In this document: in pieces, positions 1,414 to 8,900 of the stretch | How positions within the stretch are numbered: the stretch's first letter is position 1 | Layout of the letters: the number at the start of each line of letters is the position of its first letter | Assembly (NCBI RefSeq): GCF_003428155.1 | Contig: NZ_QLIR01000005.1 | Coordinates: 1 to 32,000 of the forward strand | Length of the DNA stretch: 32,000 nucleotides | From: Fastidiosibacter lacustris | GTDB taxonomy: Bacteria > Pseudomonadota > Gammaproteobacteria > Francisellales > Francisellaceae | Direction: 5' to 3' | Notes under the pieces: generated by a model | The model's database searches: none | What the model was told of the DNA's origin: nothing | Seen by the model: the letters and a program-made list of their open reading frames with translations, nothing else | Made by a program: the position numbers and the translations under genes

Positions 1414-2064
1414 ATGATAAAAAAATGTTTAACTGCAATGGGTATCATTTTAGCAGCAGGAAGTGTGATGGCAAATATTAAAACAGGTTATGGTTATGTT
1501 GAACAGATTTTGCTTTTACCAAGTCAGACTATCCTTGAGGCAAAACTTGACACGGGTGCAGGTATATCATCTATTTCAGTAACTAATATTTATATTTATG
1601 ATAAAGATGGTCAAAATTATATCCGCTTTGATGTAATGCACGAGATGATTAAAGATGATGAAAAAACGGATAAGTCTAGAAAAAAATCCTATGATTTACC
1701 ATTAAAGCGTGACATGAAAATTAAAAATCGTCTAAGTGAGAATATAGAAGAACGATATGATGAGCGACCTGTTGTTGACATGCCTATTTGTTTTGATGGA
1801 AAAATTTATAATATTGAGATGAATCTAACGGATAGATCAAGGTTTAAATATCCTGTGTTATTAGGTCGAAAGGCGTTAATTAAATTAAATGCTGTAGTTG
1901 ATCCTGGTCAAAAATTCACGATAAATCTAGATGATTGTATTAAGCTTTTGGAAAAAGAGAACGAAAAAATAAAGCAAAAATCTAAAGACGCATCAACAAA
2001 TAAAGTGCAAAAGATAGAAACGACGATTGATAGTGAAAAATTAAAAGAAGAAGAAACAAATTAG
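1414..2064 (+). CDS. Secreted retropepsin-like aspartic peptidase (the family is usually annotated 'ATP-dependent zinc protease', Zn_protease/RimB-like) with a Lys/Glu-rich C-terminal tail
   Basis: There is an N-terminal signal peptide, MIKKCLTAMGIILAAGSVMA|N. A D-T-G-A active-site motif (AKLDTGAGISSI) has its DTG at nt 1549..1557. The motif ...YPVLLGRKAL... is conserved in this family. It is the first gene of a conserved three-gene cassette. Confidence 0.7.
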   Translation: MIKKCLTAMGIILAAGSVMANIKTGYGYVEQILLLPSQTILEAKLDTGAGISSISVTNIYIYDKDGQNYIRFDVMHEMIKDDEKTDKSRKKSYDLPLKRDMKIKNRLSENIEERYDERPVVDMPICFDGKIYNIEMNLTDRSRFKYPVLLGRKALIKLNAVVDPGQKFTINLDDCIKLLEKENEKIKQKSKDASTNKVQKIETTIDSEKLKEEETN

Positions 2065-2105
2065 TATAAAGTAAGCAAATCAATTGATACTTGGATAGAT
2101 ATATT

Positions 2106-3695
2106 ATGAGTAAAGTTAATAAACAATTTTTTACCCTATTAATTATTTTATTGCTAGCAGGGATTGGTTTTACTTTATATCAGCATTATAAGCTGGGGTT
2201 ATCCTGGTGGCCAAATGATGAAAATATGACTTGGAAATTTAATACTGAATTACAAATCTTACCTGATACGACAAATTCATCTTTAAAGGTGAACCTGGTT
2301 GTACCAAATTTGCAAAAATCAGATGTATTAGATGAAAATATTAATGCCTCTGGTTTTGGTAAGATTATTTTACGTTCAGAAAATAAGAATAATAGAGTGG
2401 CAGTTTTGTCAAAAAGTGAAGTTAGTTCAAAGCAGACAATTATTTATGATGTAACTGTTGCAAGTAATTCAAGCTTTATTGAGCCCCCTATTCCTGATTT
2501 AGGAAAGGAGAAAAAAAAAATAAAGAACGCTCTTGAACCTAAAAAGCTTATTACGCTTTTGACAACAGCAAAAGACATTGCAGAAAAATCGGCTGATTCG
2601 ACAACTTTAGTTACTCAAACCATTAATTTTGTTAACGATGATGGTAATTTATATTTTTGGCAGGAAATGACTAATGGTAAACCAACAGCAAAAGGTCGAG
2701 CGCAATTGCTCAATTACCTGTTAACACAGCTGCATTTACCTAACGTGTTATTACACGTTGTACCTTATCAATATGAAGGTAAGTTGAACTTAAAAAACTT
2801 GCCAGTATGGGTCAATGTTTATTATGACAATGCATGGCATGTATTTGACGTAAAATCAGGTGCCCCCATTGATGATCCAAATATGCAAGCAATGGTATGG
2901 TGGATGGGCAATGGCAATTTTGTGGATGTTGAAGGTGGTACGGTAAAAATTGTCTCATTTACTGCAACAAAGCAAAGTATTCCAATGGAGCGTTATTTAG
3001 ATTTAAGAAATAATGTAATGAAGCAAAATGTCTATGAATTTTCGTTGCTAAACCTTCCTGCGCAGACACAAGAGATTTATAAAATCATATTAGTGGTACC
3101 CTTTGGTGTGTTAATACTTTTAGTTTTGCGTATTATTATTGGCGTGCCAACCTTAGGGACATTTATGCCTGTACTAATTGCTTTGGCATTTAAAGATACA
3201 ACTTTAATTTGGGGAATTGTGCTTTTTTCTTTGGTTGTTATTTTGGGATTAAGTTTTAGAACATATTTTGAAAAACTACAACTTCTTGTAGTGCCGAGAC
3301 TTGGAATGATCTTGACAGTTGTAGTATTAACGATGGCTTTGATTAGTATTGTGATGCATAAAATGGAACTATCTCAAGGCTTATCAATTACACTCTTTCC
3401 AATGGTGATTCTGACAATGTCAATTGAACGTTTGTCAATAACTTGGGATGAGCGTGGTAGCACAGAAACAATTAAAATTGCGCTTGGTAGTTTGCTTGCA
3501 GCAACGGTTTGTTATGTTTTCATTTTTAATAACTACCTGGAGTATTGGTTTTTTACTTTCCCGGGCTTATTGCTTCTTGTGATGGCTGTTATGTTGTTAA
3601 TAGGGCGTTATCGAGGGTATCGTTTGACTGAGCTATATCGTTTTGAAGCGCTAGCATTAAAAGCAAGTAGCAAAGAAAAAGGAAAAGGGGTCTAA
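2106..3695 (+). CDS. Membrane protein: N-terminal anchor, about 300-aa periplasmic domain (inactive-transglutaminase-like) and a C-terminal 7-TM block (Transglut_i_TM / 7TM_transglut, 'UUP1' type)
   Basis: The start is preferred at ATG 2106 (MSKVNKQFFTLLIILLLAGIGFTLY...) rather than TTG 2091. A hydrophilic region of about 300 aa is followed by multiple hydrophobic helices (IILVVPFGVLILLVLRIIIGVPTLGTFMPVLIALAF... to ...FPGLLLLVMAVMLLIG). The gene lies between the peptidase gene and the ATP-grasp gene, as in the known conserved triad. The stop codon abuts the next ATG. Confidence 0.65.
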   Translation: MSKVNKQFFTLLIILLLAGIGFTLYQHYKLGLSWWPNDENMTWKFNTELQILPDTTNSSLKVNLVVPNLQKSDVLDENINASGFGKIILRSENKNNRVAVLSKSEVSSKQTIIYDVTVASNSSFIEPPIPDLGKEKKKIKNALEPKKLITLLTTAKDIAEKSADSTTLVTQTINFVNDDGNLYFWQEMTNGKPTAKGRAQLLNYLLTQLHLPNVLLHVVPYQYEGKLNLKNLPVWVNVYYDNAWHVFDVKSGAPIDDPNMQAMVWWMGNGNFVDVEGGTVKIVSFTATKQSIPMERYLDLRNNVMKQNVYEFSLLNLPAQTQEIYKIILVVPFGVLILLVLRIIIGVPTLGTFMPVLIALAFKDTTLIWGIVLFSLVVILGLSFRTYFEKLQLLVVPRLGMILTVVVLTMALISIVMHKMELSQGLSITLFPMVILTMSIERLSITWDERGSTETIKIALGSLLAATVCYVFIFNNYLEYWFFTFPGLLLLVMAVMLLIGRYRGYRLTELYRFEALALKASSKEKGKGV

Positions 3696-4637
3696 ATGTG
3701 GTGGATAAGCAAATGGCTAGCATTACGCAAGTCTGGTGTTTTAGGTATTAATGAGCGTAACCTATCTTATATTAAAAAATTTAATAATCGCAAATTTTAT
3801 CCGCTTGTTGATGATAAATTAAAGAGTAAAAAACTTGCATTAGAGCATGGTATTAATGTGCCTGAATTATATGGCGTGATTCATTCAGAGCACGATAATA
3901 AAAATTTAGACAAGATGCTTACCGGTAGAAGTCAATTTGTAATTAAACCTGCTCAAGGAGCAGGTGGTGAAGGCATTTTGGTTATTACTCATTTTATCAA
4001 TAATCGTTATAGATTATCCAATGGTAGGCTTATGACTTTGGACCAGTTAAAATATCATACTTCAACAACATTAAGTGGTGCGTATTCGCTAGGTGGTCGG
4101 CCAGATAAGGCAATGATTGAATATCTTATTCAATTTGATCCAATTTTTGCTAAAGTTGCTTTTCAGGGTGTGCCTGATATTCGGATTATCTTAGTCAAAG
4201 GCTTCCCGGTGATGGCAATGGTGCGCTTACCTACTCAAGTATCCAATGGTAAAGCAAACTTACACCAAGGTGCAATTGGAGCGGGTGTTGATTTAAAAAC
4301 AGGTATAACTTTGCATGGTGTTTGGCACAATGAGATCGTTACTCACCATCCAGATACTTTGCATGAGGTGGAAGGTATTACCATACCTTATTGGCAGAAA
4401 TGCTTAGATATTGCAAGTGCTTGCTATGATATGACTAAGCTTGGTTATTTGGGGGTAGACTTGGTACTGGATAAGGTTTATGGACCACTTATGTTGGAAT
4501 TAAATGCTCGTCCTGGACTTAATATCCAAATTGCAAACCAAGTTGGATTGATCGAGCGTTATAAATTGATTAAGCCTGTGATAAATGGAGATATGACAAA
4601 AGAAGAGCGAATTAAATATGTGCTTGATCGTTTATAA
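3696..4637 (+). CDS. RimK-related ATP-grasp enzyme (alpha-L-glutamate ligase-related protein, rimK_rel_E_lig type)
   Basis: GINERNLSYIKKFNNRKFYPLVDDKLKSKKLALEHGINVPELYGV...FVIKPAQGAGGEGILVI...GVPDIRIILVKGFPVMAMVRLPTQVSNGKANLHQGAIGAGVDL...GVDLVLD...PLMLELNARPGLNIQIAN is the signature of the alpha-L-glutamate-ligase-related ATP-grasp family. The ATG directly follows the upstream TAA (TAAATG), so the two genes are probably translationally coupled. Confidence 0.85.
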   Translation: MWWISKWLALRKSGVLGINERNLSYIKKFNNRKFYPLVDDKLKSKKLALEHGINVPELYGVIHSEHDNKNLDKMLTGRSQFVIKPAQGAGGEGILVITHFINNRYRLSNGRLMTLDQLKYHTSTTLSGAYSLGGRPDKAMIEYLIQFDPIFAKVAFQGVPDIRIILVKGFPVMAMVRLPTQVSNGKANLHQGAIGAGVDLKTGITLHGVWHNEIVTHHPDTLHEVEGITIPYWQKCLDIASACYDMTKLGYLGVDLVLDKVYGPLMLELNARPGLNIQIANQVGLIERYKLIKPVINGDMTKEERIKYVLDRL

Positions 4638-4747
4638 AACAAACGTTTGGAAATTTAGAACTACAAGCTATCGTTTATTAGACATTATTGTAACGTAAAA
4701 GCTATAATCAAATTAACTTATAAAGAAATGTAATCTATATTAAAACA

Positions 4748-5938
4748 ATGAAGTATAAAGCAATGAACGCTATTGTATTAAAAAATAAATATGAATTAAT
4801 GGTAAGAAGTCTAAGAAAAGTATTTCTGAACCTAATGCTGGTGAGCGTAATAAGTTTCTTACTCAATTTATCTTATGCCCAAGATAAAGCACAAAGTGTT
4901 CCAACGGTCGCAGTGAACGTTGGAAAGGTAGAGAAAATCAATGTGCCTGAAACAATTACAGCAGTAGGACATATGCTTGCAGTGAAACAAGTCAATTTAA
5001 GCTTTGATAATAGTGGTAAGTTAGAAGATAAGTACTTTAAAAATGGTGATCGAGTACTTAAAGGTGAAACGGTGGCGTCTCTTGACGATCAACAAAATGT
5101 GGCGAATCTACAGGCTTTACAGGCAAAGCTTAATTTAGCAAAACAAACTTACTCTAGGGTCAAATTATTAGAGCAATCAGGTGCAATTTCAAAAGAGGAT
5201 ATCGACCAGAAATATGCAGGTTTACAACAGGCACAAGCAGATGTTGATCAACAAAAAGTTGTAGTCAATCAGGATAAATTACAAGCCCCTTTTACAGGTG
5301 TATTAGGAACCTATCAGTTTGACGTAGGGGCTTATATTGCAGCAGGAACTGTCGTTGTGCAGTTAACGCAAGAAAGCCCACTTAAAATTCGATTTGCCAT
5401 TCCATCAGAAATGAAACCAAAGATTGCAATTGGGAATGAAGTTGAGCTAACAACAGAAACTTATCCAGAAAAAACCTTTAAGGGAATAGTGAATTATATT
5501 TCTCCTACAGTTAACACCAATACTGGTACGCTTGAAATAGAAGCCGAGGTAAAGAATGATGATTATTTATTATCGCCAGGTATGTTTATGTCTGTATTAC
5601 AAGTTTTACAAGAAAAACGACCTATGCTAGTTTTGCCAGATATGGCTATACAAATAAATCAGCAAGGGAGTTTTGTTTATGTTGTTAATCCTGACCATAC
5701 TGTCAGGGCAACTCAGATTGAAACAGGGCTTATTCGCAAAGGGTGGACGCAGATTACAAAGGGTTTAGCAGAAGGGCAAGAGGTGGTTACCATTGGCGGT
5801 AATAAATTGATAAATGGTGCAAAAATAACCTTTTCAGATGTTCCAGTTCCGTCATTTGATAAGCTACAAAAAGAGGTAAATATTCATATCCATACGAAAG
5901 AAAATGCTAATATTTCAACTACTAAAATAGTGAATTAA
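4748..5938 (+). CDS. RND efflux periplasmic adaptor subunit (membrane fusion protein)
   Basis: The protein has a hydrophobic N-terminal signal or anchor, a coiled-coil stretch (LQALQAKLNLAKQTYSRVKLLEQSGAISKEDIDQKYAGLQQAQADVDQQK), a 'APFTGVLG' lipoyl/beta-barrel motif, and lies immediately upstream of an RND pump. The true start may be the internal Met at 4799 (MVRSLRKVF...). Confidence 0.85.
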   Translation: MKYKAMNAIVLKNKYELMVRSLRKVFLNLMLVSVISFLLNLSYAQDKAQSVPTVAVNVGKVEKINVPETITAVGHMLAVKQVNLSFDNSGKLEDKYFKNGDRVLKGETVASLDDQQNVANLQALQAKLNLAKQTYSRVKLLEQSGAISKEDIDQKYAGLQQAQADVDQQKVVVNQDKLQAPFTGVLGTYQFDVGAYIAAGTVVVQLTQESPLKIRFAIPSEMKPKIAIGNEVELTTETYPEKTFKGIVNYISPTVNTNTGTLEIEAEVKNDDYLLSPGMFMSVLQVLQEKRPMLVLPDMAIQINQQGSFVYVVNPDHTVRATQIETGLIRKGWTQITKGLAEGQEVVTIGGNKLINGAKITFSDVPVPSFDKLQKEVNIHIHTKENANISTTKIVN

Positions 5939-5941
5939 AGC

Positions 5942-8900
5942 ATGAAACTATCAAAAATTTGTATTCAAAGACCCGTATTTGCGGTTGTACTAAATCTTAT
6001 GATCATCGTGTTAGGGATTGTGGGTTTTAGCTATTTGGAAATACGCTACTTTCCTAAAATTCAGCAAAAAACTGCTACGGTATCTATTTCCTATTCAGGT
6101 GCTTCGCCAACACTTATTAAAAATGACGTTACTATTCCTGTTGAAGATGCCCTATATAATATTGATGGACTTGTAAAAATTACATCAACAAGCTCATATG
6201 GTAGTAGCACAATTAATTTAACCTTTGCTGATGACGCTGATATGACTGATATGATGGGGCAAGTACGCGACAACATTTCTAGTATTATGTCACAAAGGCT
6301 TCCTGCTGATATTAATTCCCCTAATATTAGCCAAGGCGGGGTTGAGCGACCCGTACTGAATTTAGGTGTGATGGATAAAGATTTGACTTCAGCTCAAATT
6401 CGAGATTATGTACAAAGAAATATCATGCCTATTTTTCAATCTGTCCCTGGTATGGGCGCTGTTTGGGTATATGGTGCTAGTGATTATGCAATGCGTATTT
6501 GGCTAAATCCGCAAAAAATGGCTGCTTTAGGCATTACGATAAGTGATGTTCAAAAGACACTAAATAGTAATAATATTAGTTTTTCAGGGGGTAGTATTAG
6601 AGGAAAATATCGTAACTTTTCAATTAGTTCAGATACTGATTTAAAAACTGCTCAGCAATTTAGAAATCTGGTAGTAAGAGACGATCCTAATGCCCCTGTT
6701 TATTTGAAAGACATTGCAAAAATTGACTTAGGCAATGCAAGCTTAAGCGATTCTCCAATGCTCATTAATGGTCAAAATGCGATTAGTGTGCAGCTAAGAC
6801 CGACAGATAATGCTAATCCAATTATGGTAGCAGCTCTTGCTAAAAAAGAGCTAAAAAAAGTTGAAGGCAATCTGCCACACGGTATGGAAGTTAAAATTGT
6901 ATATGATCAATCTACTTTTTTACAAAAATCTATAACAGATGGGTATGATACTTTAATTGAAGCAATTATTTTGGTGATGATTGTTGTCTTTATTTTCTTA
7001 GGCAGTATTCGTGCGTCACTTATCCCTATTTTAACTATTCCTGTATGCGTGATTGGTGCTTTTGGTGTCATGCTGTTGTGTGGATTTAGCATCAACGTTG
7101 TCACATTATTGGCGATTATTCTTGCAATTGGTCTTGTCGTTGATGATGCAATTGTTGTACTAGAAAATATCCATAGACATATCGAAATGGGCAAAAAACC
7201 ATTTAATGCAGCTATAGAAGGCTCAGCTGAGATTGGCTTCTCAGTGATTGCAATGACTTTAACCTTAGCAGCTGTTTATGCACCAATTGGCTTTTTATCT
7301 GGATTTAGTGCAACTATTTTTAGAGAATTTGCTTTTACATTGGCAGGTTCCGTACTTATTTCTGGGTTTGTGGCACTTACTCTTTCACCGATGATGTGTG
7401 CTTATATTCTTAGAGCACGAGAAAAAGAAACAAGAATTGAAATTTGGCTCAACCATGCATTTGATAAGCTCAATGCTGGTTATGGAGAAGTACTTAATAT
7501 TGTATTAAAAGCAAAATATTGGGTGGTAGGATTACTAATTTTATTAGCTGGATTATGTTATCTATTATTTAGAATTATGCCACAATCCTTTATTCCAAAA
7601 GAGGATATTGGTTATTTTGAGGCCAATATTAATTCACCGCCAAGTGCTGCACTTGATTATACAAACTACTACATGAACATATTGAGCAAGCGTGTTTATG
7701 CTGATAGTCCCTACATTTTAAACAATGCCGAATATATTTTTTCAGGCTCAGGTAATAATTTTGTGACGATGCAACCTTGGGGAGAGAAGCGGAAGGTGCC
7801 AACACAAGAAATCATTCCAAATCTTCTCAAAGAAGCTCAACAAATTCCAGGTATAAAGGTGAGTATGAATATTCCCGATCCTGTGAGCTTTGGACCAGAT
7901 GCAGATAGTTCAGATTTAATTATTTATCTTCATAATGTCGGACCTGTTGAGAATTTAGTCAAGGCAGCAGATGTGCTTACTAGTAAACTTATGCAGTATC
8001 TAGGTTTAAATAACGTTAATAATGGTCTTAAGTTTGATAACGTTGCTTATAATGTAACGTTTCAACGCAATTTGGCTGCAAGTGTTGGGGTGGATCCACA
8101 GAATATTGCAGATACTTTTAGTATTTTAATGAGTGGGAAACATATTACCGATGTCAAGACTGATGAAAAAAGCTATCAAGTATTAGTGCAAATGAATTTA
8201 CAAGACCTTTCAAGTTTTGGTAGTTTAGATAAAATCTATGTACCAAGTAAATCAGGTCTAATGATTCCATTATCAAATTTAATCAAGATCAAACCAGAAG
8301 TCAGACAAAGTAGTTTTTTTAGATATAATCGGGTTAACACGGCTCAGATTACGGCCAATATTAACGATGGTTATAGCATGAGTGAGGTTTATAATGCGGT
8401 GAATAAAATTGCTAGTCAAACTCAACTCAATGGGGCGAGTATTGACTATGGTGGACGTATGGCTGCATTTTTATCTTCAAATGGAACTATGTTTGGATTA
8501 TTTGCTTTGGCATTGATCTTTATTTATTTGGTATTGGCTGCCCAGTTTGAGAGTTTCGTCGATCCTTTTATTATTTTGTTGACTGTGCCTTTATCTACAG
8601 TTGGCGCTTTGATTACAACATTATTAACAGGTGGAAATTTGAACCTCTTTACAAATATTGGTTTAATTACGCTGGTTGGCTTGATTAGTAAACATGGAAT
8701 TTTAATTACTCAGTTTGCAAACGAAAACTTCAAAGAGGGAGTCAGTCTTGTTGAAGCAGTTAAAGTCGGGGCCATTACACGCTTGCGTCCTATTTTAATG
8801 ACAACATCTGCAATGGTGTTAGGTTCTCTTCCATTAGCACTAGCAACAGGAGCAGGAAATATTTCGAACAATATGATTGGTTGGGTGATCGTTGGTGGGC

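Follow-up and report, generated by a model that had tools for sequence, protein, structure and literature searches.

The 32,000 nucleotide (nt) stretch of Fastidiosibacter lacustris DNA analyzed here ("the window"; contig NZ_QLIR01000005.1, positions 1 to 32,000) carries at 1414-4637 three adjacent, co-directional genes that encode, in order, a RimB-like peptidase, an inactive-transglutaminase seven-transmembrane (7TM) protein and an ATP-grasp protein, and this cassette is very probably the F. lacustris orthologue of the rloA-rloB-rloC operon of Pseudomonas aeruginosa. Window coordinates below are on the + strand unless stated otherwise. The first gene, rloA (1414-2064), encodes a 216 amino acid (aa) secreted retropepsin-like aspartic peptidase (WP_116963642.1) recognized by PF05618, the NCBIfam RloA models and matches in PDB; the second, rloB (2106-3695), encodes a 529 aa inner-membrane protein recognized by PF14402, PF14400, NCBIfam inact_TG_RloB and an AlphaFold2 (AF2) model; and the third, rloC (3696-4637), encodes a 313 aa cytoplasmic ATP-grasp amidoligase related to alpha-L-glutamate ligases and recognized by TIGR02291 and PF14397. 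The rloA stop codon (TAG, 2062-2064) is separated by 41 nt from the rloB ATG at 2106, and rloC starts directly after the rloB stop, in the sequence TAAATG (3693-3698; gap 0 nt). Mechanical start calling places the rloB start at a TTG at 2091 (open reading frame (ORF) 2091/2106-3695); we use ATG 2106 because the Cysteiniphilum, Facilibium and Fangia homologues start with MSKVNKQ or MNKVNKQ. The initial annotation of this DNA had placed the three ORFs and their junctions correctly, and its coordinates, 41-nt gap and TAAATG were all reproduced here; the families it named (Zn_protease, Transglut_i_TM/7TM_transglut and rimK_rel_E_lig) were recovered by profile search as strong matches.

The three window proteins are identical to WP_116963642/3/4 of F. 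lacustris, which NCBI labels 'ATP-dependent zinc protease', 'UUP1 family membrane protein' and 'alpha-L-glutamate ligase-like protein', respectively. Some of these public names are outdated or point the wrong way: an aspartic peptidase is called 'ATP-dependent zinc protease' or 'RimK/LysX family protein', and an RloB orthologue 'UUP1 family membrane protein'. The origin of the last label was not traced in the literature, where only unrelated Ureaplasma serovar papers turned up.

The identity of the cassette was recognized because the names of the NCBIfam RloA and RloB models pointed to the literature; literature searches with the Pfam and TIGRFAM family names returned no papers. The comparative-genomics source of the peptidase-7TM-ligase triad is reportedly Iyer et al. 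(2009; Mol Biosyst 5:1636), and the 'RloB/RloC' of the Menshen paper we take to be unrelated namesakes (restriction-linked ORFs). The operon was characterized as rloA-rloB-rloC in P. aeruginosa PA14 by Lormand et al. (mBio 2025; PMC12239564), where it is PA14_41690/41710/41730 and rlo stands for retropepsin-like osmotic stress tolerance. RloA, RloA2 and RloA3 have signal peptides and are dimeric, DTGA-containing retropepsin-like peptidases with crystal structures; purified RloA cuts reporters with 8 or 10 consecutive Glu residues but not those with 6 or fewer, and its polyGlu channel is lined by the basic residues K46, R92, K95, K97, R99, K109, R114 and R137 (PMC12239564). Substitutions in this channel, foremost R114A and R137A, lower cleavage in vitro, and R114A and R137A abolish complementation in vivo (PMC12239564). 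A triple rloA1-3 deletion does not grow in salt-free LB (hypo-osmotic lethality) and has defects in biofilm, antibiotic (beta-lactam) resistance and cell shape; when rloB, rloC or the two together are deleted, the osmotic phenotype is completely rescued and the other defects in part (PMC12239564). RloA also cuts the RimB substrate RpsF-8E in vitro; genetic interaction between a rimB deletion and the rloA mutants was not seen. The authors do not assign a physiological substrate, nor an activity to RloB or RloC (PMC12239564). The statement in the initial annotation that no substrate, signal or phenotype had been shown for the triad is thus out of date, and the prior functional characterization removes the novelty of the cassette, as that annotation had said it would.

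Comparison with the Pseudomonas operon establishes in F. lacustris the orthology of the three genes, their synteny, the catalytic and polyGlu-contact residues, the Cys-free ectodomain of RloB and the RloB topology. The same three families stand in the same order, orientation and tight spacing in the two organisms; both RloA proteins have a predicted signal peptide, the DTGA motif and a Cys pair, and they share seven of the eight polyGlu contacts; the two RloB proteins have the same two Pfam domains over their full length (97% coverage); and RloC is about 50-55% identical to its Pseudomonas counterparts. The F. lacustris operon differs in that its RloA and RloB are only 33-37% identical to those of P. 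aeruginosa, in that its RloA has a 41-aa Lys/Glu-rich tail and an insertion ahead of the flap, and in its context, with CRISPR-cas upstream and an efflux pump of the resistance-nodulation-division (RND) type downstream. The Pseudomonas rloA phenotype would presumably carry over to F. lacustris.

RloA matches PF05618 (Zn_protease, with the newer label RimB-like) with an E-value of 1.6e-33 and the NCBIfam RloA1/2/3 models at about 1e-33; its best NCBIfam matches carry the name 'retropepsin-like aspartic peptidase RloA/RloA2/RloA3'. The protein aligns with two crystal structures of RloA, PDB 9g59 (E 1.2e-24) and 9g58, and with the Legionella structure 2pma. Read by eye from the sequence, its N-terminus resembles a signal peptide (MIKK followed by CLTAMGIILAAGSVMA and then N), and the predicted Sec signal peptide spans aa 1-20 (MIKKCLTAMGIILAAGSVMA; 1414-1473) with cleavage after VMA; the mature domains of the crystallized homologues align from residue 21-26 onward, past this predicted peptide. 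The catalytic DTGA motif (D46; aa 46-49, 1549-1560) is invariant in 11 of 11 aligned RloA sequences. C126 and C175 align with Cys columns present in all Pseudomonas RloA sequences, and this pair corresponds to a disulfide that is kept in the periplasmic but not in the cytoplasmic orthologues (PMC12239564). The polyGlu contacts were mapped by way of P. putida RloA, a protein in which residue types and spacing agree with the published numbering: seven of the eight P. aeruginosa contacts are kept, as K44, R99, K102, K104, R106, R118 and R141, among them the counterparts of R114 and R137, both of which are required in vivo. The only contact lost, K109 of P. aeruginosa, is E113 in F. lacustris, and the position of K109 is called variable by the authors (PMC12239564). 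This retention gives good sequence-level support for the prediction that F. lacustris RloA has the same substrate preference as Pseudomonas RloA.

Beyond C175, the last residue of the fold, F. lacustris RloA continues in a low-complexity C-terminal tail, recognized by its composition (aa 176-216, 1939-2061), whose 41 residues include 10 Lys, 8 Glu and 2 Asp. The RloAs of Fastidiosibacter, Cysteiniphilum (C. halobium) and Fangia have tails of 25-45 residues that are alike in composition but not in sequence, and Pseudomonas RloA has none. The tail was considered as a built-in substrate of RloA and rejected, as its longest Glu run is 3 and 8 are required. The F. lacustris protein also has a short insertion ahead of the flap.

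RloB matches PF14402 (7TM_transglut, E 2.9e-91) and PF14400 (Transglut_i_TM, E 6.8e-15), and it matches NCBIfam inact_TG_RloB ('osmotic stress tolerance membrane protein RloB') over its full length with E 1.8e-111; its score of 373 bits is under the 900-bit cutoff of that 'exception'-type model. It is 82% identical to its homologue in Cysteiniphilum halobium, 71% in Facilibium, and 64-65% in Fangia; against the NCBI-named Pseudomonas RloBs the identity is 35-37% across about 97% of the protein. The protein has eight transmembrane (TM) helices, laid out as follows: TM1 at about aa 8-28, an ectodomain at about 29-318, a 7-TM block at about 319-501 and then a conserved, amphipathic cytoplasmic C-terminal helix. 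The AF2 model, built from 73 homologues, has a mean predicted local distance difference test score (pLDDT) of 81.7. Its ectodomain is beta-rich plus helical (pLDDT ~90) and superposes on 3isr, a transglutaminase-like 'putative cysteine protease', with E 1.2e-8 and a target TM-score (a measure of structural similarity) of 0.59. Structure comparison of the model found no credible solved relative of the membrane block, and a sequence search of RloB against PDB gave only noise (E >= 0.06).

Could the ectodomain be an active transglutaminase? It contains no Cys (aa 29-318), the sole Cys of the protein, C469, lies inside a TM helix, and no Cys column is conserved among the 73 homologues; a Cys-His-Asp triad in the ectodomain is therefore excluded. 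D164 is invariant and H217 at least 90% conserved (in a first alignment of 14 homologues), and they could not be superposed on a catalytic site. Invariant motifs are gathered in three places: TxGTFxPVL in the TM2-TM3 loop, the charged intramembrane FPMVILxMxIER...W.E and the cytoplasmic C-terminal GRYxGYRLTELxRF. The GTFxPVL loop (3156-3194, aa 351-363) is invariant in the 73 homologues and yet is the sole part of the model with pLDDT below 50; it may be a mobile or re-entrant functional element.

RloC scores 440 bits against TIGR02291 (rimK_rel_E_lig; cutoff 314) and matches PF14397 (ATPgrasp_ST) with E 6e-93. K84, the Gly-rich loop Q87-G93, D255, E268, N270 and R272 are kept in at least 97% of 81 sequences, which predicts an active ATP-grasp ligase. 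Among solved structures, sequence search relates RloC to RimK proteins only (E 7e-6), with RloC residues 38-96 aligning to RimK 97-153, and RloC lacks most of the RimK N-terminal domain. It falls under the RimK-family cutoffs (39.8 vs 143.4 bits for TIGR00768 rimK_fam and 29.6 vs 331 for PRK10446); by these scores and its missing N-domain, RloC is related to RimK and is not a member of the RimK family. In place of the RimK N-domain it has a conserved N-terminus of 37 residues (W7, L10, G14, G17-N19, R21 and N22), and one may speculate from this conservation that the N-terminus contacts RloB. The features read from the letters in the initial annotation thus hold for all of the proteins to which they were assigned: the periplasmic DTG peptidase with a Lys/Glu-rich tail, the periplasmic domain of about 300 aa joined to a 7-TM block (in agreement with both the AF2 model and hydropathy) and the absence of the transglutaminase triad, which makes the domain inactive.

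Gene order was compared at 80 rloB loci, taken from one genome per species; the set is mostly Pseudomonas and is phylogenetically biased. rloC follows rloB at 80 of the 80 loci, starting within a few tens of nt of the rloB stop in 79 and about 300 nt away in the other (L073), and rloA immediately precedes rloB at 73, which agrees with the earlier description of the triad as a recurrent neighborhood. From these counts, the pair rloB-rloC forms an invariant core, to which rloA is usually joined in cis. One of the seven loci without an adjacent rloA is cut at a contig end. The other six (L002, L003, L004, L005, L045 and L078) are from two Halopseudomonas (H. salina and a metagenome-assembled genome (MAG)), a Pseudomonas MAG, P. 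matsuisoli, a Steroidobacter MAG and an unclassified gammaproteobacterial MAG; at at least five of these six the upstream ORFs are divergent and, judged by eye, resemble a transcription regulator and a lyase. Such genomes may carry the peptidase gene at another site, and the fact that rloA is not always in cis fits the paralogue redundancy reported for P. aeruginosa. The order rloA-rloB-rloC is kept in Fangia, two metagenomic lineages (42-50% identity), Salinisphaera and Guyparkeria, with unrelated housekeeping flanks.

The above comparisons identify the operon, but how might its three products work together? The most economical reading, to which we give a probability of roughly 0.55, is that RloC together with RloB makes a Glu-rich alpha-peptide that reaches the periplasm and is cleaved there by RloA; it rests on the published epistasis and the conserved anatomy of the proteins. 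RloC, the RimK-related cytoplasmic ligase, would use ATP to make Glu-rich peptide chains with alpha linkages, which could be free or attached to a carrier or target. RloB, with its catalytically dead transglutaminase-like periplasmic domain, would act in the same step as RloC and make the product available on the periplasmic side. RloA, as a homodimeric DTGA aspartic endopeptidase that is exported by Sec, has a basic channel and cuts runs of at least 8 Glu, would trim or remove the product, and when RloA is missing the RloBC product would build up and harm envelope integrity. Deletion of rloB or rloC would then suppress the loss of rloA because the product is harmful when RloA is absent. In this scheme the chemistry of RloC and the export or presentation role of RloB are presumptive. 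The trans-membrane logic of the initial annotation, a cytoplasmic Glu-type ligase and a periplasmic peptidase with a membrane link between them, still fits these data. It is possible, although we consider it doubtful, that RloB and RloC form a trans-membrane machine whose product, an alpha-polyglutamate (or polyglutamylated carrier), would be delivered to the periplasm of Gram-negative cells and be metered there by RloA.

Several observations weigh against the three-step reading. The product of RloC has been identified in no organism to date, and the authors, who leave the substrate open, found none with polyGlu among the periplasmic proteins of P. aeruginosa (PMC12239564). For the 7-TM block there is no related solved structure that would point to transport by RloB, and since the loss of rloB or of rloC alone already gives a phenotype, the product is more than toxic waste. 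In addition, the F. lacustris system is known from its genes alone, and its distance from Pseudomonas is considerable (33-37% identity for RloA and RloB, which also score below the narrow NCBIfam cutoffs, and about 50-55% for RloC).

The epistasis data fit equally well a receptor or signaling system, in which the pseudo-transglutaminase domain of RloB senses a periplasmic or envelope cue and allosterically switches RloC, which glutamylates a cytoplasmic target, with RloA acting upstream as the enzyme that cuts a periplasmic ligand or the ectodomain of RloB. Pseudo-enzyme ectodomains are often binding modules, and that of RloB is well folded (pLDDT ~90) and has invariant non-catalytic residues; the cytoplasmic C-terminal GRYxGYRLTELxRF motif is also invariant, and RloC, without most of the RimK N-domain, could need a partner. 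Such a system nevertheless seems unlikely to us, since neither the RloB ectodomain nor the rest of the P. aeruginosa periplasmic proteome encodes a Glu run that suits the specificity of RloA (at least 8 in a row), since the need for the polyGlu-contact residues in vivo suggests that the substrate is a polyGlu species in the periplasm, and since there are no known cytoplasmic targets. We regard as quite unlikely an action on the cell wall, by which RloC would add amino acids to a peptidoglycan-related or lipid-linked precursor, RloB would handle it in the membrane and RloA would edit the peptide outside, the phenotypes coming directly from altered peptidoglycan. The cell shape, beta-lactam sensitivity and hypo-osmotic lysis phenotypes agree with this, and the authors themselves propose a role in peptidoglycan homeostasis (PMC12239564); a Shewanella rloB-like mutant hypervesiculates, the Pfam model that matches RloC is named for a sugar-transfer-associated ATP-grasp and RloC has weak matches to Ddl-type ligases, and there are occasional envelope-related neighbors (an SLT lytic transglycosylase in Fangia and a PAP2 phosphatase in L085 and L086). 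But the best family match of RloC is alpha-L-glutamate-ligase-like and its sole solved relative is RimK, RloA requires long Glu runs that are not present in peptidoglycan stem peptides, and the neighbor genes differ among lineages.

The initial annotation also saw in the position of the cassette an accessory, possibly defense-related context, and a function of the three genes with the adjacent type I-C CRISPR-cas locus or in phage defense more generally must be weighed as well. The physical adjacency in F. lacustris, in the window and in a sister strain, is the sole observation in its favor. Cas1c (the C-terminal part, type I-C) and Cas2 are encoded upstream of rloA at 139-847, and the sister assembly GCA_024208055.1 (99.4-99.9% identical) has a full cas3-cas5-cas8c-cas7-cas4-cas1-cas2 set upstream. 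However, RloA, RloB and RloC have 0 matches in PADLOC-DB v2 at E <= 0.01, and a tblastn search with the window Cas1 and Cas2 found no match within 8 kb of rloB at the 80 loci of other genomes. In the closest relatives other genes stand upstream of rloA, a large repeat-rich surface protein gene in C. halobium and an Impact_N gene in Fangia hongkongensis, and six other lineages have housekeeping flanks. The rest of the window encodes PepA, an outer membrane protein, NadB, PlsY, a MATE pump, LepA, RdgB, ProC, YggT, GyrA and Dxr; because these remaining genes are housekeeping or core metabolism genes, the window is core chromosome and not an island. On the PADLOC and Cas1/Cas2 nulls we reject the defense link, which is close to refuted, and the CRISPR adjacency of rloABC is specific to F. 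lacustris and a coincidence at the strain level.

Three known systems or folds may be compared with the three-step reading. The RimABK/RimB-RimK system, which polyglutamylates ribosomal protein S6 in Pseudomonas and E. coli, also joins an ATP-grasp ligase to a retropepsin-like polyGlu endopeptidase; RimK makes poly-alpha-L-glutamate and RimB trims it, much as proposed here for RloC and RloA. Unlike Rlo it is wholly cytoplasmic and has no RloB-like membrane protein, and RimB, unlike RloA, has neither a signal peptide nor the Cys pair. PgsBCA/CapBCA of Bacillus is similar in concept, with a membrane-associated amide ligase that makes extracytoplasmic polyglutamate and dedicated hydrolases that cut it. 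The PgsBCA proteins are unrelated to Rlo: PgsB is of the Mur-ligase type and not an ATP-grasp enzyme, the linkage is gamma and not alpha, and the organisms are Gram-positive. A further difference is that the RloBC polymer is hypothetical so far; the authors of the Pseudomonas work draw the analogy to PgsBCA-type polyglutamate in their discussion (PMC12239564). Finally, the RloB ectodomain model superposes on the transglutaminase-like cysteine peptidase fold of 3isr, from Cytophaga hutchinsonii, but differs in having no Cys, hence no thiol nucleophile, and in being fused to a 7-TM block without a solved counterpart.

The rloB gene contains the longest homopolymer in the 32-kb window, an A10 tract at 2511-2520 in the ectodomain codons for KEKKKIK. 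The sister assembly GCA_024208055.1 has A9 there (L084 9946-9954), and the resulting frameshift splits its rloB into ORFs of 138 and 378 aa. The difference may be an assembly or sequencing error, a true loss-of-function allele or phase variation; that the tract is a slipped-strand on/off switch of the system is rather improbable. Mutations in rloB are recurrent in Pseudomonas screens (PMC12239564).

The neighbors named in the initial annotation, CRISPR-cas upstream and an efflux pump downstream, are both present. The CRISPR array, which lies outside the rlo system, is a minimal one of type I-C, with 2 repeats and 1 spacer (1071-1169); the array of the sister strain (L084 8372-8612) has 4 repeats and 3 spacers. 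In both the terminal repeat is degenerate, with GGATTAAGAC in place of GGATTGAAAC. On the other side of the operon are genes for an HlyD-type membrane fusion protein (MFP; 4748-5938) and an RND pump (5942-9025), identified by profile matches. An MFP-RND pump adjoins rloC on the same strand in F. lacustris (4748-9025) and C. halobium (L001 6030-10268) and on the opposite strand in the metagenomic lineage L086 (7512-11551; 50% RloB identity). A PAP2 phosphatase gene lies ahead of rloA in L085 and L086, and the Fangia lytic transglycosylase (SLT) gene is downstream of the rlo genes; envelope-related rlo neighbors are recurrent but not universal. A 752-aa ORF on the - strand (13661-15919), between plsY and the MATE-family pump gene, has no Pfam match at E <= 1e-5 and none in PADLOC.

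A candidate sigma-70-like promoter, TCGACT-16-TATAAT (1308-1335; 10/12 matches), lies about 80 nt upstream of rloA; the number of promoter-like sites in the region is not above shuffle expectation, and this site is a candidate only. The best promoter-like site of the region, TAGACA-18-TATAAT (4679-4708; 11/12), is between rloC and the MFP gene, and because of its position the MFP-RND pump is probably a separate transcription unit. No terminator was found between rloC and the MFP gene, and an Rfam scan of the whole window gave no match. The boundaries of the rloABC operon are accordingly presumptive.

What does the F. lacustris cassette mean for the rlo family? With this window, a recently characterized envelope-stress operon is extended to the Fastidiosibacteraceae, relatives of Francisella; the system itself is not new. 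That the polyGlu-cleavage residues are kept at about 35% identity supports a conserved substrate across the Gammaproteobacteria. Which substrate RloC ligates, and how the 7-TM protein then acts on the product, are family-wide questions, already posed in the literature, and they matter in view of the operon's effects on antibiotic tolerance, biofilm and virulence-linked fitness in Pseudomonas. They are sharpened here by the finding that rloB-rloC is the invariant core and that rloA is sometimes elsewhere, by a 7-TM fold without a solved relative, and by an RloC that lacks the RimK N-domain. If a polymer machine formed by RloB and RloC is real, it would be a previously unrecognized envelope or osmoprotective polymer system that is widespread in the Gammaproteobacteria.

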